Source: Pseudomonas sp. DNDY-54 | GTDB lineage: Bacteria; Pseudomonadota; Gammaproteobacteria; Pseudomonadales; Pseudomonadaceae | DNA length: 40,000 nucleotides | Direction: 5' to 3' | Assembly (NCBI RefSeq): GCF_019880365.1 | Contig: NZ_CP082271.1 | Coordinates: forward strand, 3,446,083 to 3,486,082 | Shown here: piece after piece, positions 2,380 to 24,021 of the stretch | How the letters are laid out: the number at the start of each line of letters is the position of its first letter | Numbering within the stretch: the stretch's first letter is position 1 | Position numbers and translations under genes: made by a program | The notes under the pieces: generated by a model | Database searches by the model: none | Told to the model about the DNA's origin: nothing | What the model saw: only the letters and a program-made list of their open reading frames with translations

Positions 2380-5258
2380 CAGCAGTGCTCCCCGACGAAG
2401 GCGCGGACTTCATGGGCGCCGGGCAGCATCAGGGCTTGCTGGGCCAGCCTCTGGCAGGCCGCGAAATCCAGCTCGCGAACGCGCGCCTTCACCAAGGCGA
2501 TGCTGCGCGCCGAAACGCTCAGTTCGTCCACGCCCAGGCCCACCAGCATCGGCACCGCCAATGCATCAGCGGCCAGCTCGCCACAAACGCCGACCCACTT
2601 GCCGTGGGCATGGGCCGCCTCGACCGTCATACCGATCAGCCGCAGCACCGCTGGGTGCAGCCCATCGGCCTGCCCTGAAAGCGTCGGATGCCCGCGGTCG
2701 ATGGCGAGGGTGTACTGGGTGAGGTCATTGGTGCCGATGCTGAAGAAGTCGACTTCCTGCGCCAGCACCGGCGCGATCAGCGCGGCGGACGGGATCTCGA
2801 TCATGATGCCGACCTGCAGATCGGCCACCGGCAGCTCAACGCGCAGGCGGTCGACCATGGCCTTGGCGGTGCGCCATTCATCAATGTTGCCGACCATGGG
2901 GAACATGATCCGCAGCGGGCGGCCATCGGCCGACGAGAGCAAGGCACGCAGCTGGGTTTCGAGGATGTCCGGGCGTTGCAGGCTCAGGCGAATGCCGCGC
3001 ACACCGAGAAAGGGGTTTTCCTCGGCGGGCATCGGCCAGTACGGCAGCGGTTTGTCTCCGCCGACATCCAGCGTACGTACCACCAAAGGGCGCCCCTCAA
3101 GGGCTTCAAGCACGCGGCGGTACTCGGCTTCCTGAGTCGCCTGATCCGGCGCCTGGGAATGGTTCATGAACACCAGTTCGGTACGCAGCAGGCCAATGCC
3201 TTCGGCGCCCATCGCCACCGCTTCCGGGGTTTCGCCGGCAGCGCCGATGTTGGCAGCGATCTCTACCGGATGGCCGTCGCGGGTGATGGCCGGCTCCAGG
3301 CGACGCTCATTTGCCAGGCGCTTGCGATCCTCGCGGGTGGCGCGCTCGTTGCGGGCCTGCTCCAGCTGCGCATCGGTCGGCGAAACCAGCAGTTCACCGC
3401 GCTCGCCGTCGAGCAGTAACAGTGTGTTTGGGGCCAGCCCAAGCACACCCGGCCCAGCACCGACGATGGCCGGAATGCCCAGCGCGCGGGCGATGATGGC
3501 GCTGTGCGAAGTGGCGCCGCCGCCAGCGGTAAGAATCCCCGCGACGCGCTGGGCGTTGAGAGTGGCGACGTCCGAAGGCGCCACTTCGTCCATCACCAGG
3601 ATGTAGGGCTCGTCTGGAGCCTGATCGGCTTCCACACCAGTCAGGCAGGCCAGCACGCGACGCCCAACGTCACGCAAATCGGCTGCACGTTCGGCCAGCA
3701 GCTTGTCGTGCAAGGCCTCCTGCTGCTGCGCCGCAGTTTCGATTTCCTCCATCCAGGCTGCTTCGGCGCTCAGCCCTTTTTGCAGACGCGCCTGGACTTC
3801 CTCTCGCAGCGCCGGGTCGCGCAGCATGGCCTGATGGGTGGTGAAGATGTCGCGGATGCTGGCGACCTGACTCGCTTCGATCAGCGTGCCGATCTCGTCG
3901 TGCACGCCTTTCAGCGCGGCATCCAGGCGTTGCAACTCGATTGTCGGCGATTCGCCATGCTTGGGGTACTCGATCACTTGCGGCTTGCGCACCAGCACCG
4001 GACCGATGGCAATTCCGGGAGACGCCGCAATGCCATTCACCTGATCACCGGCGCACAGGGCGGCCTGCTCGATGGCCGATTCATCAGGTCGCATGGCGAT
4101 GACCGGTTGCTCCATCTCACCTGCGGCCGGCAAGGGCTCGACGTCCTCGCCCAGCCCGTCTTCCACGGCGCGCACCAGCGCCGGCAACGCATCGTCGGCA
4201 ATGGCAGGTTCGGCCATGAATTCAAGCACCTGACCGCGATGCGCACCCATTGCCAACAATTTGCTCAGGCTCTTAGCCGACACGCCAACACCTTCATTGC
4301 CCGCCAGTCGCACGCGAATTTCGCCATCGAACGCCTGTGCGACCTCGGTCAGCGTCTTGGCCGGACGCGCATGCAGACCGTGCGCATTGGCCAGTGAGAC
4401 CCTAGCGCTGGGCCAGTCGGCCGGCACTTCGCCGCCCAGGGCTTCGAGCACCACGCGGCTGGAAGTCGCTTGGCTCAACTCCTGCCCACGTCCTTCGATC
4501 AGCAGGTTGCACAGTCGCTCGAGCATCGCCCGATGCGCTTCGCCCAGGCTGGCCAGCACGAAAAGACCGTTGAGGGGCTGGCCTTGGTGTTCAAGATTCG
4601 ACGCGGGCGTAACGAACGCTAATCCAGGGCGCTGCACCGATTGCTCGCTGCTCAGCCACCAGAGACCATCGCCCAGCGGCAGCGCCTGGCTCAGCGGCAA
4701 GCTGGCGTTGAAGCCCGGTTCTACGCACTGGGCGCGCTTGAGCAACTTCACACCCTGCCAGGCCAATTCGTCGAAATCATCGGCGGCGACACCCAGGCCG
4801 ACCAGTTCGCCGTCCAGCGCCAGGGCCTGCGGCGCGCCCTGCAGCAGGTCGATGATGACCTCAGGGCTTTCGGCCTTCTGCAGCGCCTCGCTGAGGTCGC
4901 CCTCGCCCAGGGCTCGGGTCAGCAGTTGCAACAGGCGCAAATGTTCATCGGAGCGGGCCGCGATACCGATGGCGAGATACACCAACTGGCCGTTGCCCCA
5001 GTCGACCCCGGCCGGAAAGTGCAGTAACCGCACGCCAGTGGTGAACACCTGATCGCGGGTTTCCGGCGTGCCATGAGGGATCGCGATGCCCTGCCCGAGA
5101 AAGGTCGAACCCTGCGCTTCGCGCGCGCGCAGGCCGTCGAGATAACCGGGCGCCACCAGCCCATCGGCGACCAGTACCTCGCCAAGCAGGGCGAGGGCCG
5201 CGGGCTTGTCCGCCGCGTGCTGACGCATGTGGATGTGCTGGGCATTCAACTCAAGCAT
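2379..5258 (-). CDS. fruB: Multiphosphoryl transfer protein of the fructose PTS (EIIA-Fru / HPr-like FPr / Enzyme I fusion)
   Basis: 959-aa ORF with three recognisable modules. EIIA: GQGIAIPHGTPE. HPr-like: ANAHGLHARPAKTL. EI phosphohistidine region: GGGATSHSAIIARALGIPA, followed by the PEP-utilising C-terminal region. Confidence 0.9.
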   Translation of the reverse strand: MLELNAQHIHMRQHAADKPAALALLGEVLVADGLVAPGYLDGLRAREAQGSTFLGQGIAIPHGTPETRDQVFTTGVRLLHFPAGVDWGNGQLVYLAIGIAARSDEHLRLLQLLTRALGEGDLSEALQKAESPEVIIDLLQGAPQALALDGELVGLGVAADDFDELAWQGVKLLKRAQCVEPGFNASLPLSQALPLGDGLWWLSSEQSVQRPGLAFVTPASNLEHQGQPLNGLFVLASLGEAHRAMLERLCNLLIEGRGQELSQATSSRVVLEALGGEVPADWPSARVSLANAHGLHARPAKTLTEVAQAFDGEIRVRLAGNEGVGVSAKSLSKLLAMGAHRGQVLEFMAEPAIADDALPALVRAVEDGLGEDVEPLPAAGEMEQPVIAMRPDESAIEQAALCAGDQVNGIAASPGIAIGPVLVRKPQVIEYPKHGESPTIELQRLDAALKGVHDEIGTLIEASQVASIRDIFTTHQAMLRDPALREEVQARLQKGLSAEAAWMEEIETAAQQQEALHDKLLAERAADLRDVGRRVLACLTGVEADQAPDEPYILVMDEVAPSDVATLNAQRVAGILTAGGGATSHSAIIARALGIPAIVGAGPGVLGLAPNTLLLLDGERGELLVSPTDAQLEQARNERATREDRKRLANERRLEPAITRDGHPVEIAANIGAAGETPEAVAMGAEGIGLLRTELVFMNHSQAPDQATQEAEYRRVLEALEGRPLVVRTLDVGGDKPLPYWPMPAEENPFLGVRGIRLSLQRPDILETQLRALLSSADGRPLRIMFPMVGNIDEWRTAKAMVDRLRVELPVADLQVGIMIEIPSAALIAPVLAQEVDFFSIGTNDLTQYTLAIDRGHPTLSGQADGLHPAVLRLIGMTVEAAHAHGKWVGVCGELAADALAVPMLVGLGVDELSVSARSIALVKARVRELDFAACQRLAQQALMLPGAHEVRAFVGEHC

Positions 5259-5365
5259 GGAGAACTCCTTGCGGGCTCGCGATTGTTTTTATACCGGCGG
5301 CGTGCGAACGACAGCGCGCCGGCATGACCCGAATCCTGGGCCGGCGCTTATGACCGGACAGCTGC

Positions 5366-5377
5366 TGAAACGTTTCA
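5366..5377. promoter_or_regulatory. Cra/FruR operator (perfect palindrome TGAAACGTTTCA) in the fruB-cra divergent intergenic region
   Basis: The 12-bp perfect palindrome is read directly at 5366-5377. It matches the known Cra half-site pattern (TGAAAC/GTTTCA) and lies between the divergent fruB and cra genes. Confidence 0.75.
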
Positions 5378-5514
5378 CCAACCCTTGGCACATTACGCAA
5401 ATTTGGGTGACTCTAGAAGCCCGAGTTCAAACCACCCGTCTCGGGGATCCACTTGCCTCTCCGTAGAACGTGTTCCGCCGGCACTGCAAACCGAAACAGA
5501 CCAAGGATTTCTCG

Positions 5515-6504
5515 TTGAAACTGACCGACCTCGCCCGCCTCGCCAACGTTTCGGTAACCACCGCCAGCTATGTGCTCAACGGCAAGGCTGCGCAACGGCG
5601 AATCAGCCCAGCCACGGTCGAGCGCGTCATGGCCGTCGCCGAACAGCAGGGTTTTCAGCTTGATCAGCAAGCGGCCGGGCTACGCCGCGGGCAGTCGCGA
5701 ACCCTTGGCTTCATCGTTCCGGACCTGGAAAACCCCAGCTACGCCCGCCTGGCCAAATTGCTGGAACAGCGCGCCCGCTTGCGCGGCTATCAGTTGCTGA
5801 TCGCAGGTTCCGACGACGAGCCGGACACCGAGCGGCAGGTCCTTCAGGTGCTGCGCTCGCGCCGTTGCGATGCGCTGATCGTTGCGAGCTGCCTGCCGGC
5901 TGATGATCAGAGCTATCGCAAGCTTCAAGCGAGCGGCACCCCGGTGATTGCCCTCGACCGGGCGATGGATGCCGAGCACTTCTGTTCAGTGGTCAGCGAT
6001 GACCGCGAGGCAGCGGCGCAGCTGACCCGCTCGCTGGACATTCCAGCCGACGCGCATATCGCGCTGATCAGCGCGCGGCCGGCCCTTCGCATCAGCCAGC
6101 AGCGTGAGGAAGGTTTTAACCGGACTTTAACCGGGCACAGGGGCCAGGTCAGCGTGCTCCAGGCCGAGCAGTTCAGCCGCGCCTGTGGCCGCGAACAGAT
6201 GCTCACCCTGCTCGACCGCGGACCGTTGCCCGACGCCTTGATCACCACCGCCTATGTGTTGCTCGAAGGCGTCTTCGATGCACTGCGCGAACGGGACCTG
6301 CTCTGGCCAGAGCATTTGCGCCTGGCCACCTTTGGTGACGCGCAGCTGCTGGATTTCCTGCCGATCCGGGTCAACGCAATTTCCCAGCAGCACGAGCAGA
6401 TTGCCAAGTGCGCGCTGGAGCAGGCGATTGGTGCAATAGAGCAAGGCGACTATCGCCCCGGCGTGACTGCCATCGGGCGTGAACTGAAGGTTCGTCAGCG
6501 TTGA
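5515..6504 (+). CDS. cra: LacI-family catabolite repressor/activator (fructose operon repressor)
   Basis: The ORF track frame is 5470-6504. The N-terminal HTH is KLTDLARLANVSVTTASYVLNGK. I prefer the TTG at 5515, preceded by AAGGA at 5503-5507; the GTG at 5470 is the maximal alternative. The gene is divergent from fruBKA. Confidence 0.8.
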   Translation: MKLTDLARLANVSVTTASYVLNGKAAQRRISPATVERVMAVAEQQGFQLDQQAAGLRRGQSRTLGFIVPDLENPSYARLAKLLEQRARLRGYQLLIAGSDDEPDTERQVLQVLRSRRCDALIVASCLPADDQSYRKLQASGTPVIALDRAMDAEHFCSVVSDDREAAAQLTRSLDIPADAHIALISARPALRISQQREEGFNRTLTGHRGQVSVLQAEQFSRACGREQMLTLLDRGPLPDALITTAYVLLEGVFDALRERDLLWPEHLRLATFGDAQLLDFLPIRVNAISQQHEQIAKCALEQAIGAIEQGDYRPGVTAIGRELKVRQR

Positions 6505-17574: not shown

Positions 17575-18540
17575 CTACATCCGATCCAGCGGGCTTAGCA
17601 CCGCAAGACCGCCCCGATTGAGCACATGGGTGTAGATCATCGTTGTCTTCACATCCGCATGCCCAAGCAGTTCCTGGACAGTGCGAATGTCCTGCCCGCT
17701 TTCCAACAAATGAGTGGCGAAACTGTGCCGCAGGGTATGAGGCGTCGCCAACTTTGCGAGCCCTGACGCCTTAACCGCTCGCTTGAACGCGCGTTGCACG
17801 CGTTTCTCGTCCAGATGATGCCGACGCACCGACCCGCTGCGCGGGTCGACTGACAAGCCCGCCGCCGGAAAGACATATTGCCAAGCCCACTCAAACGGTG
17901 CGCCGGGATACTTCCGCGCCAAGGCATCCGGCAGATAGACGTCGCCCCTTCCCTCGGCCAGCTCGAACTGATGAATGGCTCGCACCCGCGCGATATGTTG
18001 CCTGAGCGGTAATGCCAAGCTTGTCGGCATTACCGTGACGCGATCCTTCTGACCCTTGCCGTCGCGGATGATGATTTCCTTTCGCGAGAAATCCACATCC
18101 TTGACCCTAAGCCGTACGCCCTCCATCAAACGAAGACCCCCGCCATACAAAAGTCGCGCGATGAGCCCGACGTCTCCATCAAGCTGTCCGAGGATCTGCT
18201 GTACCTCGCTAATGGAGAGCACAACCGGCAACCGAGCCGGTTTCTTGGCACGGACTACCTCGCCCAACCAGGGTAAATCCTGCTTGAGCACCTGTTTATA
18301 AAGAAACAATAACGCGGCCAGTGCCTGATTCTGCGTGGAGGCCGACACATCACGGCGAACCGCCAGATCAGAAAGAAACGCTTCGACGTCCGGAGCGCCC
18401 ATTTCCATTGGGTGGCGATAATTGTGAAACCGTACGTAGCGCTTGATCCATTCGCAATAGACGCGCTCAGTTCTGATCGAGTAGTGTTTCAGCCTGATCT
18501 GGTCGCGGACTTGATCGAGTAAACGCGGCTTTCCATCCAT
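17575..18540 (-). CDS. intI: Integron integrase (tyrosine recombinase, IntI family), apparently intact
   Basis: ATG at 18540 (cat at 18538-18540) with a GGGAG SD 8 nt upstream. The longer 18630 start in the ORF track would run through attI-side motifs. The catalytic set is visible: GLRLME (Arg), [12 protein letters not shown] (His-x-x-Arg) and TTMIYTHV (Tyr). The IntI-specific insertion [21 protein letters not shown]...RRHHL is present. Confidence 0.9.
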
Positions 18541-18584
18541 GGTGTATAACTCCCTTATACATTCATCCTTCCTCGGAACCGCCC

Positions 18585-18613
18585 AGACTAGACAAGGAGG
18601 TCGAAGATGACAA
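18585..18613 (-). promoter_or_regulatory. Candidate intI promoter (TTGTCA-17 bp-TAGTCT on the minus strand)
   Basis: Read on the reverse strand, the -35 TTGTCA is the complement of 18608-18613 and the -10 TAGTCT is the complement of 18585-18590. The -10 is weak. This is sequence inspection only. Confidence 0.2.
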
Positions 18614-18616
18614 GGA

Positions 18617-18678
18617 ATGTTATACACCACGCCCGTTCGGCGTCTTATACACCACTTGGTGTCTAATTATAGTTAGGC
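18617..18678 (+). other. attI recombination site with its crossover core
   Basis: Direct repeats TTATACACCAC occur at 18620-18630 and 18645-18655. An inverted copy, GGTGTCTAA, lies at 18658-18666, followed by the core GTTAGGC at 18672-18678. The first cassette's attC inverse core GCCTAAC (18912-18918) is complementary to this core. Confidence 0.8.
18646..18673 (+). promoter_or_regulatory. Candidate cassette promoter (TATACA-16 bp-TATAGT) overlapping attI
   Basis: -35-like TATACA at 18646-18651 and -10-like TATAGT at 18668-18673, oriented into the array. By-eye match only. Confidence 0.2.
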
Positions 18679-18911
18679 GTCATTTTCGTTTAAGGCTCGT
18701 GCATACATGGAAGTTTGTTTCGCCGCCGCCCGTTACTCTTTCAATACGCATCCGTCGCATTGCCCGCTAGCGCGTCGTTTGCGCGCTTTGGCTCCGAGTC
18801 CGGCAACAAGGAGCATGCAGCGGTGTGAATCAGTCAGCACGTATTGGTTTGAACGTTCGAATCCACTCAGCCATTCGCGGTATCAGCCAGCGAGGCCCGC
18901 TATGCTCCGCT

Positions 18912-18987
18912 GCCTAACAAGCGGTTCAAGCCGCTCACTTCGTTCGCTGGGACTGGCTAAAGCCAGCCCCTTAACCAAACGTTAGGT
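18912..18987 (+). repeat. attC 1 (76 bp, diverged member of the array's main attC family)
   Basis: GCCTAAC ... GTTAGGT. The central stem gactggctaaagccagcc differs from the family's gacgggctaaagcccgcc by a compensatory pair (G>T with C>A). Confidence 0.85.
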
Positions 18988-18992
18988 ATCAA

Positions 18993-19226
18993 ATGCTAAA
19001 CCGCTACCCTGACCAAGCCCGCACCCGTAGAGGTTACGCATTAACGGGAGCGTTGTTTTTGATATTTGGCCTATTTATGCTTTTTATCGGTTCAGCAGCA
19101 GGAACTCTTGTCGGTGTGGTCATGGCCTGTACATTACTTATTCCAGCATGCCTATTTAGCCACTCTCGCTTCAAAAAATATAATAGTGCCATTTCATGGG
19201 TAGCCAACTTTGGTAACCTGTCGTGA
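18993..19226 (+). CDS. Cassette 2 (18982-19297): hypothetical small membrane protein, 2 TM
   Basis: 77 aa. The ATG is 11 nt after the crossover. Hydrophobic segments are ALTGALFLIFGLFMLFIGSAAG and LVGVVMACTLLIPACLF. The stop lies just before attC 2. Confidence 0.6.
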   Translation: MLNRYPDQARTRRGYALTGALFLIFGLFMLFIGSAAGTLVGVVMACTLLIPACLFSHSRFKKYNSAISWVANFGNLS

Positions 19227-19227
19227 A

Positions 19228-19303
19228 ACCTAACTAGTGGTTCAAGTCGTTCGCTTCGCTCACTGGGACGGGCTAAAGCCCGCCCCTTAACCAAACGTTA
19301 GGC
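19228..19303 (+). repeat. attC 2 (76 bp, main family)
   Basis: ACCTAAC...ggttcaagtcgttcgcttcgctcactgggacgggctaaagcccgccccttaaccaaacGTTAGGC. The inverse core complements the cassette start TTAGGT. Confidence 0.9.
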
Positions 19304-19305
19304 GA

Positions 19306-19725
19306 GTGAGTCTTTTTATCGGAGTATGGAGTAGTACCGATATGGCGTATTTTTTTGACATGCTTTTCGGATTAATTTTTGTCTTCGTCGCTTCTCTAGG
19401 CTTGATTATCACACCACTGAAGAAATATGTTTCGTTAAAAATTGTCGTAGTAGCAATATTCATGTCACCACTCGTTTTGCTAGTTACGTCTTTATGCGTC
19501 TCTCAGGTTGACGCGGTGGGCGTTGAGGGATTCTTGGCAGGTGACTTTCTTTGCTCTAGTCTGCATGGCGCCAGTTCACACGGATGCGGTATAGGCGGTG
19601 CTCTTTTTGATGCGTTTCTAGTAGCAGGCCTGTTCAGCCTAGTTAGCTTCGGGTTGTTTCCTATTGCTGCCTTTGTGGTATCCCTTTTACTTCTTTCAAT
19701 ATTGAAGAAACTACTTTGTCACTAG
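19306..19725 (+). CDS. Cassette 3 (19298-19888): hypothetical polytopic membrane protein
   Basis: 139 aa from the GTG at 19306; the ATG at 19342 is an alternative start. About 4 hydrophobic segments with a Cys/Gly/His-containing loop (CSSLHGASSHGCGIGG). Confidence 0.6.
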   Translation: MSLFIGVWSSTDMAYFFDMLFGLIFVFVASLGLIITPLKKYVSLKIVVVAIFMSPLVLLVTSLCVSQVDAVGVEGFLAGDFLCSSLHGASSHGCGIGGALFDAFLVAGLFSLVSFGLFPIAAFVVSLLLLSILKKLLCH

Positions 19726-19782
19726 GTACGGTCGCCCGCTCGCTGTTTCCGGCCGCCGCTAGCGCGCCATGAAGTCCGCATG

Positions 19783-19894
19783 GCCTAACCGTTCGTTCAA
19801 GCCGAACCTGCTTCGTTGCAGCACCATCGTGGCAGAAAAAACTTGCCACGCCGTTGCTTCCACTACGCAGTTCGGCTTAACTCAGGCGTTAGGG
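19783..19894 (+). repeat. attC 3 (112 bp, heterologous type)
   Basis: GCCTAAC cgttcgttcaagccgaac ... gttcggcttaactcaggc GTTAGGG, with a long imperfect central palindrome. Its sequence is unrelated to the main family. Confidence 0.85.
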
Positions 19895-19901
19895 TAAGAA
19901 C

Positions 19902-20363
19902 ATGCTCCTTCAGCTAAACGCTAATAAAGACAACCACAGGAAGGTTTTAGCTGAGTTGATAAAACGCTCTGAAATATCAGTACTGTGCTCTGGATGGCTG
20001 AAACAGGCGGGGCTTAAACACTTACTCCCCGCCATTGATCTCGCCTTAAAAAATAAAAGCCAAATCACTATTTACTCAAATAAAAAACATACTGATAGCG
20101 AAGCAATAGAATCTCTAAAATCAAGAGAGTCAATTCTCCACATAGTAGTAGACGACAGCGCTAAATATCTTCATTCAAAAATATACTACTTCGAGAACGC
20201 TGGTGAATATAAAGCAATCATAGGTTCTGCGAACATCACGAACGGCGGATTAACCTCTAACGAAGAGCTTTCAGTAAGCCTGGCAGGAACTATTGGTGAC
20301 AGTCAGAACAATCAAATAAAAAAATATCTAGCTCGGCTTAAAACCGTGGGCCACCCAAACTAG
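19902..20363 (+). CDS. Cassette 4 (19889-20423): PLD-superfamily (single HKD motif) nuclease-like protein
   Basis: 153 aa. The relaxed HKD motif is LHSKIYYFENAGEYKAIIGSANITNGG...NEE (H91, K93, E98, G108-S109-x-N111; nt about 20172-20234). The TAG stop lies inside attC 4. Confidence 0.65.
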   Translation: MLLQLNANKDNHRKVLAELIKRSEISVLCSGWLKQAGLKHLLPAIDLALKNKSQITIYSNKKHTDSEAIESLKSRESILHIVVDDSAKYLHSKIYYFENAGEYKAIIGSANITNGGLTSNEELSVSLAGTIGDSQNNQIKKYLARLKTVGHPN

Positions 20364-20429
20364 TGGTTCAAACCGTTCGCTGCGCTCACTGGGACGGGCT
20401 AAAGCCCGCCCCTTAACCAAACGTTATGT
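20354..20429 (+). repeat. attC 4 (76 bp, main family)
   Basis: CCCAAAC...ggttcaaaccgttcgctgcgctcactgggacgggctaaagcccgccccttaaccaaacGTTATGT. There is one mismatch to the complement of the cassette start TTAGGG. Confidence 0.9.
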
Positions 20430-20451
20430 GGCAGCTCATCTGAGAATGTGA

Positions 20452-20787
20452 ATGACTGATAAATTCGATGAAACTAGAGCAAAGTTTCTGAGCACAGATT
20501 ATCTGCTATGGCGTAATGTGCTTTCTTGCGTTGTTCTGGTTGTGCTATCTACAGGCGCTGTATCGTCTTGGTGGTACGCCTATTACACGACTCCTGGGGC
20601 CGAGTGCCACAGAGGTTTCTTTTACTTTTCGGTTCTGTGGCTTGTTGTTCAATGGGTAGTCATTGGTTATCTATATCGGTATCGGAATGTCCCTGCATTT
20701 GCTCGGGGTGCGATAGAAATGCTAATTCTGGTCGCTAATATTTGGTTTGTGCTTTTCATTTTTTCGCTTGAGCCGTGTGTCTCGTGA
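20452..20787 (+). CDS. Cassette 5 (20424-20872): hypothetical membrane protein, about 3 TM, Trp/Tyr-rich
   Basis: 111 aa. Hydrophobic segments are VLSCVVLVVLSTGAV, FFYFSVLWLVVQWVVIGYLY and IEMLILVANIWFVLFIF. Confidence 0.6.
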   Translation: MTDKFDETRAKFLSTDYLLWRNVLSCVVLVVLSTGAVSSWWYAYYTTPGAECHRGFFYFSVLWLVVQWVVIGYLYRYRNVPAFARGAIEMLILVANIWFVLFIFSLEPCVS

Positions 20788-20794
20788 CGCAAGC

Positions 20795-20878
20795 ACATAA
20801 CCAGTGCAGGCACGGCGACGCCCTTTTCATTGCGCCTTCGGCTCCATTCCAAGGGCGCGCATGCTGCAAGCGTTATGT
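20795..20878 (+). repeat. attC 5 (84 bp, heterologous type)
   Basis: ACATAAC cagtgcagg ... gctgcaagc GTTATGT. The inverse core exactly complements the cassette start TTATGT. Its sequence is unrelated to the main family. Confidence 0.8.
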
Positions 20879-20887
20879 ACCAAAGCC

Positions 20888-21325
20888 ATGAATATCATTG
20901 AAGCAATAAAAATGTCTTGGGGCTGGGTCGGTATTGAGCCAGAGGAAATCATTGGTGAAAACGATTTCGGAAATCTGATCATCAAGGACAATCGCGGCAG
21001 GTATTGGCGCCTATGCCCTGAAGATGTTTATTGTCAAGTAATCGCCGAAAATAGAAACGAGCTTGATGCGCTCTCGACAAACCAAGATTTCTTAGCTGAT
21101 TGGTACATGGCTGCGTTGACTGAACAAGCTAAAGAGAGACTTGGCTCATTGCTGCCCGGTCACAAATATCACTTGGTCATACCGAGCGGGCTTGGTGGCG
21201 AGTATACATTATCAAATATTCGTACAGTTCCACAGATCGAGCAAATACACTTCTCTGGAGACATCGGAAAGCAAATATCCGATCTCCCTGATGGCGCTAA
21301 AGTAAAACTCAAGGTTATCGAGTAA
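20888..21325 (+). CDS. Cassette 6 (20873-21399): DUF1851 / T6SS-immunity Tdi1 C-terminal-like protein (tentative)
   Basis: The ATG at 20888 is the first start inside the cassette; the ORF-track start at 20804 lies in the previous cassette/attC. 145 aa. The blocks FGNLIIKDNRGRYWRLCPEDV and LPGHKYHLVIPSGLGGEYTLSNIRTV...IHF resemble my recollection of the DUF1851 signature (..cy.f.P.l.LGG....n...v). This has not been checked against a profile. Confidence 0.45.
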   Translation: MNIIEAIKMSWGWVGIEPEEIIGENDFGNLIIKDNRGRYWRLCPEDVYCQVIAENRNELDALSTNQDFLADWYMAALTEQAKERLGSLLPGHKYHLVIPSGLGGEYTLSNIRTVPQIEQIHFSGDIGKQISDLPDGAKVKLKVIE

Positions 21326-21329
21326 AGGC

Positions 21330-21405
21330 ACATAACAAGTGGTTCAAATCGTTCGCTTCGCTCACTGGGACGGGCTAAAGCCCGCCCCTTAACCATACGT
21401 TAGAA
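21330..21405 (+). repeat. attC 6 (76 bp, main family)
   Basis: ACATAAC aagtggttcaaatcgttcgcttcgctcactgggacgggctaaagcccgccccttaaccatacGTTAGAA. Confidence 0.9.
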
Positions 21406-21410
21406 GTCAC

Positions 21411-21869
21411 ATGGATATCGTAGCCCCAATCATCGCAATTCTTTTTACATGGCGCTTTTTACTCAGCCTAGCCATCTCAGTAGTGCTTGCATTTTTGTTA
21501 GCTCAACACTTTGGGCTAGTAGCTAGTTTTTTTACAATCTGTATTGGCGTGGGTTTTGGCGCTATTTGGCAGGGTCGTTGGTTATCTGGCCTAGCTTTGT
21601 TCGAGCCTGCCCAAGCTCAGTTAGTATCTAAGCCCATTGCATTTATTGGTTTCGCTTTTATTGGGGCCATATGGGGTGGTCTTGTAGGCCAGCTATTCGG
21701 CTCTACGCTAATTGGGGCATTAGTTTTGCTGGCTGGCGTTACACTAACAGGCGCTTGGTTTACCCTAGTTCTTAAACTACACGCACAGCTTTTTAAACTC
21801 ATATTAGTCGCTATATCTTTGCTCATCGGATTTTTTAGCATTTACGTATACGGCTTACGTCAGGTATAA
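21411..21869 (+). CDS. Cassette 7 (21400-21945): hypothetical polytopic membrane protein, Gly-rich helices
   Basis: 152 aa. The ATG is 11 nt after the crossover. About 4-5 TM segments with GxxxG-like runs (IGVGFGAIWQG, FIGFAFIGAIWGGLVGQLFG). Confidence 0.6.
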   Translation: MDIVAPIIAILFTWRFLLSLAISVVLAFLLAQHFGLVASFFTICIGVGFGAIWQGRWLSGLALFEPAQAQLVSKPIAFIGFAFIGAIWGGLVGQLFGSTLIGALVLLAGVTLTGAWFTLVLKLHAQLFKLILVAISLLIGFFSIYVYGLRQV

Positions 21870-21875
21870 GGCGCC

Positions 21876-21951
21876 TTCTAACAAGTCGCTCAAATCGTTC
21901 GCTTCGCTCACTGGGACGGGCTAAAGCCCGCCCCTTAACCAAACGTTATGC
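21876..21951 (+). repeat. attC 7 (76 bp, main family)
   Basis: TTCTAAC aagtcgctcaaatcgttcgcttcgctcactgggacgggctaaagcccgccccttaaccaaacGTTATGC. The inverse core complements the cassette start TTAGAA. Confidence 0.9.
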
Positions 21952-21972
21952 GTAAACAAGGAAGGAGTCAGC

Positions 21973-22287
21973 ATGGCAAATAGTTGGAACATTCCAAGCT
22001 GGCTCGAAAAAGAAGTCCGCGCGAGGGACAAAAAAAGCGTTTATTGCGGCATAGCATTCACAACAGCCAAGATCTCAAAGAAAACTTGCGCGATCTGGGA
22101 GCACATTTTAAATGACGCGAAAATCATTACTCTCGAAAACATTACTCTATGCTGCTGCTCATGCAACGCTAGTAAAGGACAAAAACAGCTTTCTGCATGG
22201 CTTCTTTCAAAATACTGTGTTGACCGCCAAATCACGCGAGAGTCAGTGGCCCCAATAATCAAGCAGGCATTAGCCAACGGGCTTTAG
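21973..22287 (+). CDS. Cassette 8 (21946-22362): small HNH-motif endonuclease-like protein
   Basis: 104 aa with a GGAAGGAG SD upstream. HNH-like layout: VYCG (C25) ... WEHILND (H44) ... ENITLCCCSCNASKG (N56, C61-x-x-C64, N65). The first zinc-knuckle CxxC appears incomplete (SVYC). Confidence 0.6.
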   Translation: MANSWNIPSWLEKEVRARDKKSVYCGIAFTTAKISKKTCAIWEHILNDAKIITLENITLCCCSCNASKGQKQLSAWLLSKYCVDRQITRESVAPIIKQALANGL

Positions 22288-22292
22288 CAACC

Positions 22293-22368
22293 GCATAACA
22301 ATTGGTTCAAACCGTTCGCTTCGCTCACTGGGACGGGCTAAAGCCCGCCCCTTAACCAACCGTTAGAT
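22293..22368 (+). repeat. attC 8 (76 bp, main family)
   Basis: GCATAAC aattggttcaaaccgttcgcttcgctcactgggacgggctaaagcccgccccttaaccaaccGTTAGAT. The inverse core complements the cassette start TTATGC. Confidence 0.9.
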
Positions 22369-22771
22369 GCTTATACCTATGAATACTTACTCTGCCCATT
22401 GGCTAGCTCGAATGATTGAACGCCTGCCTTCCGACGAGCCGGTTTCACTCGGCACTCAAGGCTATGCCCATTACACCACGCAGCGTGATCATTGGTTGGG
22501 CTGGCTAGATCCAAACAGAAAAGCAGTGAAGTATGCGAGGAGCAGCGGCCCTGGACGGGATGCGAGATATGCTTACAACCACATAATGGAGCCCAAAATG
22601 CTGCTGTGGCTAATCTCTGCTGCTGGTTTCCCTAATAGCGAACTTGAAAGGGCTAGAGAAGAAGCACAAGGAAAGAAAGCGTTCGCGAGCAAGTGTGCTG
22701 CTATTAGGCGGGTTGTATCGTGGGAAAAAATGGCAGCTGCGCTAACTGCAGGCCCAAACCACGATAGCTAA
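22367..22771 (+). CDS. Cassette 9 (22363-22837): hypothetical soluble protein, no recognised domain
   Basis: 134 aa. The ATG at 22367 overlaps the attC 8 core (GTTAGATG); the ATG at 22379 is an alternative. The composition is non-membrane and Trp/Arg-containing (HWLARMIERL, HWLGWLDPN). Confidence 0.55.
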   Translation: MLIPMNTYSAHWLARMIERLPSDEPVSLGTQGYAHYTTQRDHWLGWLDPNRKAVKYARSSGPGRDARYAYNHIMEPKMLLWLISAAGFPNSELERAREEAQGKKAFASKCAAIRRVVSWEKMAAALTAGPNHDS

Positions 22772-22843
22772 CAAATGGTTCTTAAATCGTTCGCCTAGCT
22801 CACTGGGACGGGCTAACCCCCGCCCCCAAACCAAACGTTAGGC
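22766..22843 (+). repeat. attC 9 (78 bp, main family, slightly diverged)
   Basis: AGCTAAC aaatggttcttaaatcgttcgcctagctcactgggacgggctaacccccgcccccaaaccaaacGTTAGGC. Confidence 0.85.
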
Positions 22844-22886
22844 AAAAATCAAATCCAACGCGTAGCTGCTCACCTGTGGTTTAGGA

Positions 22887-23138
22887 GTGCCGTTTTCTAT
22901 CTTCTTTGGCGCGCAAGTAGGTGCTTATGTCGTGGGCTTTATCTGGTCAGCAAAAGGCGTTTCTTTATTAGCTTTTCATATCGTTCCCTGCAGTGGTTTT
23001 TTCCCAACAAATGGTTCAAAGCGTTCGCTCCGCTTAATCGATACCGGTTCATGCCCGCCCACTAACCAAACGTTTAGACGGTTCTGCAGCTCGCTCCGCC
23101 GGGTGTCGATATGGATCGTGTTCGTTCGACTAACTTGA
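22887..23138 (+). pseudogene. Cassette 10 (22838-23072): short decayed cassette; the ORF runs through the attC and past the array end
   Basis: The GTG-started 83-aa frame has no spacing to its putative SD. It crosses attC 10 and the last crossover, so it is most likely a remnant or not a gene. Confidence 0.25.
23002..23078 (+). repeat. attC 10 (77 bp, degenerate terminal copy of the main family)
   Basis: TCCCAAC aaatggttcaaagcgttcgctccgcttaatcgataccggttcatgcccgcccactaaccaaacGTTTAGA. The flanks are conserved, but the central stem is disrupted and the core is GTTTAGA instead of GTTAGR. Confidence 0.65.
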
Positions 23139-23185: not shown

Positions 23186-23623
23186 ATGCCAGCGTTAATC
23201 GTCCGTAAATCTATCTGTATAAGCGCGCCACCGTCGAAGGTCTGGAACACCCTTACGTCGCCGAGCGCGATAAGGCGCTGGATGCTGGTGACGCCGGTCT
23301 TAGAGAGTGATGGCCCGCTACAGTTGGGAAATAGGGTCCGATGGAATGACGAACATGGCCGAACCTATCTCACCGGTACGGTCGTCACGCTTGATCCACT
23401 GCAGAAACTCGTGCTCGCGCTGGAAGATATCAGTTGGCCACGAAAGGCAAGGCCGGGCGAGGTGACATACGGGCTGACGCTTTCGGAATCGGACGGCGGG
23501 TCTCGTCTGGAGTTTGTGCTCGGTGACCTGGCGATCGATCCGGATGGCCAGCAGTGGTTCGAGGCGTATAGCGCCAGCGAAGAGTTGGCAATCATCAAAG
23601 CCATGGCGGAGGACCGACCGTGA
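23186..23623 (+). CDS. SRPBCC-superfamily (AHSA1/START-like) protein
   Basis: 145 aa with an AAGGAG SD. The N-terminal I.A....VW..LT.P..I..W pattern is typical of the Aha1/SRPBCC family. Confidence 0.6.
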   Translation: MPALIVRKSICISAPPSKVWNTLTSPSAIRRWMLVTPVLESDGPLQLGNRVRWNDEHGRTYLTGTVVTLDPLQKLVLALEDISWPRKARPGEVTYGLTLSESDGGSRLEFVLGDLAIDPDGQQWFEAYSASEELAIIKAMAEDRP

Positions 23624-24021
23624 GTCGTATCGACACTCGCTGTTTATGCGGAGCCGTTCACCTACGGATCCATCATCAGCCGGTGGCTCAGTTTTACTGC
23701 CACTGTGACGATTGCCAGGCCGTGCATGGTGCGTCGTATGTGGGCGTGGCTGTCTTTCCCTCGGACGCCGTCGAGGTCATTCGAGGCGCGCCGATCTCGT
23801 GGACGTACAAGACACTGCCCCGACAACGCTGCCGGACATGTGGGACGCTTCTGATCGCGCGCGTGCCAGATTCAGCGCTAACAGGCATCAAGGCAAACCT
23901 GTTGCCGCCAGGCACGTTCACGCCGGCGTTTCACATCCATTGTCAGTTCGCGGTGCTTCCGGTTGTGGATGATCTACCGCACTACGCGTCCCTGCCGGGC
24001 GTCTTCGGGGGTACTTTATGA
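23620..24021 (+). CDS. GFA/CENP-V family (glutathione-dependent formaldehyde-activating-like) zinc protein
   Basis: 133 aa. The GTG start overlaps the upstream stop (GTGA). Cys pattern: CLCG...CHCDDC...C..CG. Confidence 0.65.
   Translation: MSRIDTRCLCGAVHLRIHHQPVAQFYCHCDDCQAVHGASYVGVAVFPSDAVEVIRGAPISWTYKTLPRQRCRTCGTLLIARVPDSALTGIKANLLPPGTFTPAFHIHCQFAVLPVVDDLPHYASLPGVFGGTL

Follow-up and report, generated by a model that had tools for sequence, protein, structure and literature searches.

How can a restriction-type nuclease domain that is encoded on its own, with no part that would tell it what to cut, be retained by bacteria, and why would a host tolerate it? This question is raised by a chromosomal integron of Pseudomonas sp. 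DNDY-54, which lies in a 40,000-nucleotide stretch of contig NZ_CP082271.1 (the window; positions below are those of the window, unless the number of a homologous locus, L, is given). The fourth gene cassette after attI (19889..20423, plus strand; 535 bp) contains one open reading frame (ORF; 19902..20363, plus strand), whose 153-amino-acid (aa) product a preliminary description, made from the sequence alone, had called a PLD-family, nuclease-like protein. We conclude that this product has the fold of a PLD nuclease, with one HKD motif and all of its catalytic residues, and from its sequence relationships it is best read as a sensor-less catalytic module of the modular lineage of SauUSI, NgoAVII, BfiI, and the END-like nucleases. 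One feature of the locus is unusual: a catalytic core of the restriction type has been conserved, and is mobile, although it has no sensor. The chemistry is not new, and RefSeq already annotates the identical protein WP_222909390.1 generically as 'restriction endonuclease PLD domain-containing protein'.

A stand-alone PLD nuclease domain with an intact catalytic set

The product contains one relaxed HKD motif, as had been described, and its catalytic residues are invariant in an alignment of 34 homologues. The HxK segment (H91-S92-K93-I-Y-Y-F-E98, preceded by L90; codons of H91 to E98 at 20172..20195, plus strand) aligned with the HxK motifs of SauUSI, NgoAVII, and BfiI; the GSxN segment (G108-S109-A110-N111; 20223..20234, plus strand) aligned with GSSN of SauUSI and SSGN of BfiI; and E122 of N120-E121-E122 (20259..20267, plus strand) aligned with the conserved Glu of N-x-E in SauUSI and BfiI. 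The invariant positions are N60, H91, K93, Y95, F97, G108, S109, N111, T113, L117, E122, and S124. Two departures from the canonical HxK(x)4D(x)6GSxN motif had been pointed out previously. The spacer before GSxN is indeed longer, with nine residues between E98 and G108 compared to the canonical six, but the stretch between FEN and IIGSAN contains six residues (AGEYKA) and not the eight that had been counted. Likewise, Glu does stand in place of the usual Asp at residue 98, but it is not diagnostic, because SauUSI also has Glu at this position (HAKGYIFE) and the residue varies among the homologues (E/Q/K/T).

Profile and structure comparisons were in agreement with the assignment to PLD-family nucleases. 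The Pfam model RE_NgoFVII (PF09565), an N-terminal PLD domain, matched at 33.2 bits compared to a cut-off of 23.8, and the PLDc_2 profile search that had been proposed as a check gave 30.4 bits compared to a cut-off of 27. A profile of the family matched SauUSI (E = 2.8e-8), NgoAVII (E = 2.9e-5), and BfiI (E = 3e-4), with the HxK, GSxN, and N-x-E residues aligned. The AlphaFold2 model built from the 34-homologue alignment had a pLDDT of 93.9 and a pTM of 0.89, and included a confidently modelled C-terminal helix that closes the fold. Its best Foldseek match in the PDB was the nuclease domain of SauUSI (7clg; E = 2e-12, TM 0.90, root-mean-square deviation 1.8), followed by Zucchini, Nuc, NucT, BfiI, and NgoAVII; of the 114 matches in the PDB at E <= 1e-3, those listed were PLD-superfamily proteins.

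The PLD superfamily is chemically broad, and an enzyme that acts not on nucleic acid but on a phospholipid, polyphosphate, or other phosphodiester would be consistent with a weak PP_kinase_C match (E = 0.011) and with the appearance of polyphosphate kinase (PPK) and PLD structures lower in the Foldseek list. However, a non-nuclease function is made very improbable by the best sequence and structure matches, all of which are nucleases, and by the character of the protein, which is basic (median isoelectric point of the family, 9.0) and consists of a single domain without a membrane segment or a second HKD lobe. No signal peptide or other export signal was found in the 153-aa protein; its N terminus is hydrophilic (mean Kyte-Doolittle value, -0.46), and residues 2-5 form a core beta-strand in the model.

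Conservation, selection, and movement of the cassette

A search of 5.8 billion proteins recovered 44 homologues, nearly all of them 148-166 aa long. In an HMMER scan of 1.84 billion representatives, 4541 matched at E <= 1e-3, of which 55 reached E <= 1e-30. The representatives below the stricter threshold were ≈150 aa long with conserved termini, the top ≈65 were all 148-206 aa long, and lower-ranked matches were proteins of ≈400 aa (some of ≈530 aa) that carry the domain at their N terminus. In a scan of genomes, copies with >= 38% identity were almost all stand-alone ORFs of 150-195 aa, except for a few degenerate or cut copies, and those with <= 35% identity were mostly N-terminal domains of 390-545-aa proteins. 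Comparison of the stand-alone profile with the ≈400-aa group by hhalign placed the whole stand-alone protein on positions 2-159 of 411 (probability 99.9%, E = 5e-36), at an identity of ≈25-35% between stand-alone proteins and fused N-terminal domains. The ≈400-aa relatives (P0116-P0202) are widespread in Bacteroidota, Acidobacteriota, and Proteobacteria. No Pfam domain was found in the C-terminal half of this group, although that half is conserved; it gave a marginal profile match to 8-oxoguanine glycosylase (OGG; 9o01; E = 0.054). END nucleases combine a PLD N-terminal domain with an inactivated EndoIII/OGG-like sensor and form a single-gene defence of Pseudomonas aeruginosa against hypermodified phages (PMC12191111). 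By way of the marginal OGG match, the ≈400-aa relatives are probably END-type nucleases.

The correspondence of the cassette protein to the N-terminal domain of these relatives could mean that it is a functionless, truncated remnant of a full-length restriction enzyme, and degenerate stand-alone copies do occur (L021 has an in-frame stop, and L030 a partial copy). However, the ratio of nonsynonymous to synonymous substitution rates (dN/dS) between the window gene and three close relatives was 0.10-0.20, and the gene is therefore maintained under selection rather than decaying. This conclusion was further supported by the invariant catalytic residues, by the common length and conserved termini of the ≈55 clusters at E <= 1e-30, and by the modelled C-terminal helix, which ends the fold. 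The truncated-pseudogene reading was thus rejected on dN/dS and family size, and we regard it as hardly credible.

The cassette limits that had been proposed previously proved correct to the base. The left boundary is G/TTAGGG at 19888/19889, where T19889 is the first base after the G that closes the preceding attC, and the right boundary is G/TTATGT at 20423/20424, where the last base is G20423 in AAACG/TTATGT. We aligned the cassette plus flanks against two Pseudomonas genomes (L011 and L012) and two metagenome contigs (L005 and L007), in which protein identity to the window copy is 98% (L011), 93% (L012), and 90% (L005 and L007). In all four, homology starts at GTTAGGG and stops at AAACGTTA, and the flanks are unrelated. 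Homology breaks off exactly at the core sites, and these alignments therefore show directly that the cassette is mobile as a whole, as the preliminary description had supposed. The same description had called the cassette very AT-rich, which is so relative to the flanks (63% GC) but is too strong for the cassette itself (42.2% GC, compared to 47% for the array). In two Halomonadaceae homologues (L016 and L020; 43-44% identity), attC-like elements of another type lie directly 5' of the gene. An integrase was found by tblastn near homologues in a few loci only, all of the distant fused group.

A generic attC finder overlooked most true sites in its strict version and gave ≈50 matches per strand in the high-GC flanks in its relaxed version; attC sites were therefore defined by repeat families and boundary alignments. 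The attC of the PLD cassette (20354..20427, plus strand; crossover G at 20423), which also folds as a bottom-strand hairpin, belongs to D1, the host attC family of the array (74-76 nt, 7-8 copies from 18912 to 23074). The outer R''/R' stem of this site is weak (z = -1.55) because R'' is CCCAAAC and R' is GTTATGT; in the same cassette of L011, L012, and L005, R'' is CCCTAAC, which differs by a point change. The left boundary of the PLD cassette is supplied by the attC of the preceding cassette (19783..19894, plus strand; 112 nt; bottom-strand hairpin of -29.6 kcal/mol, z = -5.1). This site is unrelated to the 74-76-nt family, which suggests that the preceding cassette came from a different cassette pool.

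The cassette gene also moves without a partner, as had been proposed. When neighbouring genes were compared all against all by BLAST, and 150 of them by Pfam, no partner gene proved to be conserved across 26 homologous loci; the genes that recurred were those for generic methyltransferases and, at a minority of the loci, for cREC. This result bears on the possibility that the protein is a trans-acting accessory nuclease, that is, a catalytic subunit that works with a sensor or motor encoded at another site of the genome, in the manner of DrmC in DISARM and DpdK in Dpd. The best PADLOC match is indeed a DrmC model of 153 positions, aligned over nearly its full length (E = 6.4e-10), and an AAA_5 ATPase gene and a mad2-like gene lie directly upstream of the homologue in L019. 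However, the weak NCBIfam matches that also point in this direction reached 20.2 bits compared to a cut-off of 133 for DrmC_I and 20 bits compared to 100 for DpdK, no helicase or methylase partner recurs among the 150 neighbours, the window contains no second PLD gene, and the cassette travels alone between arrays with differing neighbours. We consider a trans-acting subunit rather improbable.

Homologues were also found as cargo of other mobile elements. One adjoins an insertion sequence (IS) element on an IncP-like plasmid (TrfA, KorA, ParAB), another is carried by a Tn7-like element (TniB, TniQ), and those on Burkholderiales megaplasmids are located directly 3' of either a PRTRC cluster or a restriction-alleviation gene of the Lar family. 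In L091 (1-3843) and L093 (2812-3483), which are from Cupriavidus and Paraburkholderia megaplasmids, the PLD gene comes after PRTRC or Lar genes and is embedded in same-strand runs of small DUF genes, and the megaplasmid neighbourhoods resemble the leading/anti-restriction regions of conjugative elements. A gene for an ≈105-aa cyclic-phosphate processing receiver (cREC_REC) lies directly downstream of the PLD gene in four loci (L008, 6514-6825; L022, 6470-6787; L027, 6413-6754; L093, 4525-4827; by Pfam, and by record annotation for L093). It overlaps the PLD gene in L022 and L027, and the pair may be a two-gene module. Of these loci, three are from Burkholderiales and the fourth belongs to a Tn7-like element; the cREC-linked members fall mostly into one Burkholderiales clade. 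The predicted role of cREC in conflict systems is the processing of cyclic phosphates or cADPR (PMC7824862, PMC9503650).

Such neighbourhoods would suit a counter-defence or establishment factor that heterodimerises with, and thereby poisons, the modular PLD restriction enzymes of a recipient (END, SauUSI, or BfiI-like), or that degrades nucleotide or RNA-end immune signals together with cREC. Consistent with the first of these actions, full-length and N-domain-only chains of BfiI heterodimerise in vitro (PMC2853115). A pure dimerisation poison would not need catalysis, however, and the catalytic set is fully invariant; the ≈25-35% identity to fused N-terminal domains makes cross-dimerisation doubtful; and neither the window nor the cassettes of Pseudomonas and Halomonadaceae contain cREC. 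Moreover, the family is nearly absent from phages: none of 50,697 deposited phage genomes gave a match, and IMG/VR gave one good match. We therefore judge counter-defence to be unlikely, if worth keeping in view. A further proposal, that sensor-less PLD domains make up a distinct class of mobile-element cargo, carried by integrons, plasmids, and Tn7-like elements, which would modulate immunity in counter-defence by dimer-interface swap or by cREC-paired signal destruction and would not work as independent restriction nucleases, is distinctly doubtful.

A phage origin of the family was rejected on the lack of matches in the 50,697 phage genomes. A lambdoid phage contig encodes a 157-aa member (L094, 4004-4477; 48% identity) flanked by NinB/NinG on one side and by the small and large terminase genes on the other, a typical site of accessory ('moron') genes. 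Other homologues have neighbours of a defensive kind. The homologue in L026 lies beside a restriction-enzyme-like gene and a WYL regulator, and the partial PLD gene of L030 (residues 48-149 only; about 6001-6303) adjoins a complete Gabija pair (GajA, 2e-224; GajB, 5e-136; 2831-5703). The context evidence is thus mixed, with Gabija and restriction-like neighbours on one side and Lar/PRTRC plasmid clusters, which fit counter-defence equally, on the other.

Proposed mode of action and tolerance of a bare nuclease core

The reading that we favour, to which we assign a probability of about 0.5, is that the cassette encodes a bare restriction-type PLD core that acts as a cytoplasmic, homodimeric, metal-independent, non-sequence-specific nuclease, is tolerated through low, position-dependent expression, and likely restricts foreign nucleic acid. 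A cytoplasmic homodimeric nuclease without sequence specificity is suggested because the catalytic set is complete, the protein is basic, and it has no export signal. In Nuc and BfiI, the presence of a single HxK per chain means that a dimer is needed to form one active site, and cleavage proceeds without metal through a phosphohistidine (PMC2853115, PMC4081073). By analogy, two 153-aa chains would dimerise and bring their HxK motifs together into one composite active site, where one His91 would attack the phosphodiester to form a covalent phosphohistidine intermediate and the other His91 would protonate the leaving group, with no metal required. The N-domain of BfiI, when freed by proteolysis, is dimeric and cuts DNA non-specifically (PMC3973309); the cassette protein, which has no specificity domain, would be expected to cut in the same way.

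Tolerance by the host would follow from the place of the gene in the array. The integron integrase gene, intI (17575..18630, minus strand; Pfam Phage_integrase, 3e-35; Phage_int_SAM_4, 6e-31), is divergent from the plus-strand cassette array, which follows an attI region with its crossover GTTAGGC at 18672/18673. A candidate integron promoter (Pc), a promoter-like TATACA-16-TATAGT site identified by consensus scan and sequence, lies inside attI and is directed into the array (18646..18673, plus strand); the other nearest plus-strand candidate in the consensus scan is in cassette 2 (19157-19184). The same scan found no promoter-like site between the start of the PLD cassette and its ATG, which is located 13 nt inside the cassette. 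A putative Shine-Dalgarno-like AGGG (19891..19894, plus strand), partly made by the TTAGGG core of the cassette, stands 7 nt 5' of the ATG and is kept in L011 and L012. Core sites delimit the first four cassettes at 18673-18981, 18982-19297, 19298-19888, and 19889-20423. Because the PLD gene is promoterless and fourth in the array, behind three attC hairpins, it would be expressed weakly from the integron promoter, and a domain without a DNA-binding module may in addition have a low intrinsic affinity for DNA. The likely payoff would be to restrict foreign nucleic acid as it enters or replicates, a capacity that could be called up when shuffling of cassettes brings the gene beside the promoter. 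In integrons, which carry compact defence genes, the cost of defence cassettes drops with distance from Pc (10.1101/2024.07.02.601719).

A role in defence is plausible, and it fits the restriction-enzyme lineage of the protein (SauUSI, END, BfiI), some of the neighbourhoods of its homologues, and the enrichment of integrons for compact defence genes. Several points weigh against our interpretation. A sensor-less nuclease has no evident way of discriminating self from non-self. The defence models of PADLOC and NCBIfam match at the level of the domain only. Several homologues occur in plasmid regions beside Lar or PRTRC genes and four have cREC as the next gene, which hints at counter-defence or at a substrate that is RNA or a nucleotide. 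Finally, to judge from the weak outer stem of its attC, the DNDY-54 copy of the cassette may recombine poorly and have low mobility now.

At least seven cassettes with related attC sites follow intI in the array. Cassettes near the PLD cassette encode small membrane proteins and a Tdi1-like protein, and neither an adjacent cognate methyltransferase nor, anywhere in the window, a cREC gene is present. Two positions downstream of the PLD cassette, a cassette at 20888-21325 (ORF listed from 20804) encodes a protein that has the C-terminal domain of the type VI secretion system immunity protein Tdi1 (PF08906, 1.8e-14) and appears to be an orphan immunity gene in cassette form; the attC directly 5' of it (about 20795-20878) is of a type unlike the host attC family. 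At 23186-24021, two overlapping ORFs for an AHSA1/SRPBCC-like protein and a GFA-family protein seem to lie on a single cassette, and the conserved attC repeats are difficult to follow beyond about 23074.

Modular PLD restriction enzymes such as SauUSI, BfiI, and END are understood to combine a catalytic domain with a sensor, whereas the cassette family is a conserved, selected, and mobile catalytic domain alone, apparently in the cytoplasm. Knowledge of its substrate and of the reason for its tolerance would reveal whether a nuclease core can be useful on its own, whether a position in an integron keeps a dangerous enzyme in reserve, and whether such cores are building blocks or antagonists of restriction enzymes.

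Comparison with known nucleases and defence systems

The cassette protein resembles END (END-PaCF1) and the ≈400-aa group in that the PLD catalytic domain is homologous over its full length and is encoded by one gene, without a methyltransferase. By contrast, the hypermodified-DNA specificity of END is set by its C-terminal inactivated EndoIII/OGG-like sensor, and the cassette protein ends at residue 153, where the sensor would start. SauUSI, a type IV enzyme, is both the best structural and the best sequence match and has the HxK...E, GSxN, and N-x-E elements in common with the cassette protein; however, it is an ATP-dependent protein of 953 aa with helicase and target-recognition domains. 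The type IIS PLD enzymes BfiI and NgoAVII/NgoFVII are similar in their aligned catalytic residues and in the RE_NgoFVII domain, for which the cassette protein passes the threshold, but they have a C-terminal B3-like DNA-binding domain and a cognate methyltransferase, both of which the cassette lacks.

Nuc (pKM101/Salmonella) and NucT (Helicobacter pylori) are, like the cassette protein, minimal single-HKD proteins, of about 150-180 aa, and have a similar fold (TM 0.73). They are homodimeric, metal-independent, non-specific nucleases found on mobile elements. Both are exported, in contrast to the cassette protein with its lack of a signal peptide; identity to them is 12-14%, and the NCBIfam NucT model gave 18.3 bits compared to a cut-off of 211. 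Nuc is not the closest relative; that place is taken by the catalytic domains at the N termini of SauUSI, NgoAVII, BfiI, and the END-like nucleases of ≈400 aa.

DrmC of DISARM and DpdK are likewise small, stand-alone PLD proteins of defence loci, but they act inside multi-gene systems. No drmA, drmB, drmD, drmE, drmM, or dpd neighbours were present in the window, and no drm genes were present in the 26 loci. Membership of the known defence families in PADLOC and NCBIfam (DrmC, DpdK, ZacB, MkoB) was rejected, since the matches were to the domain and far under the family cut-offs. A PLD cassette is not mentioned in the paper on phage-resistance integron cassettes (BRiCs; 10.1101/2024.07.02.601719), and none was found in the integron-defence literature searched. 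The PLD cassette nevertheless resembles the BRiCs in being a compact, promoterless integron cassette, and one of these, Brc142, is described as a putative dimeric restriction endonuclease that gives broad protection (10.1101/2024.07.02.601719).

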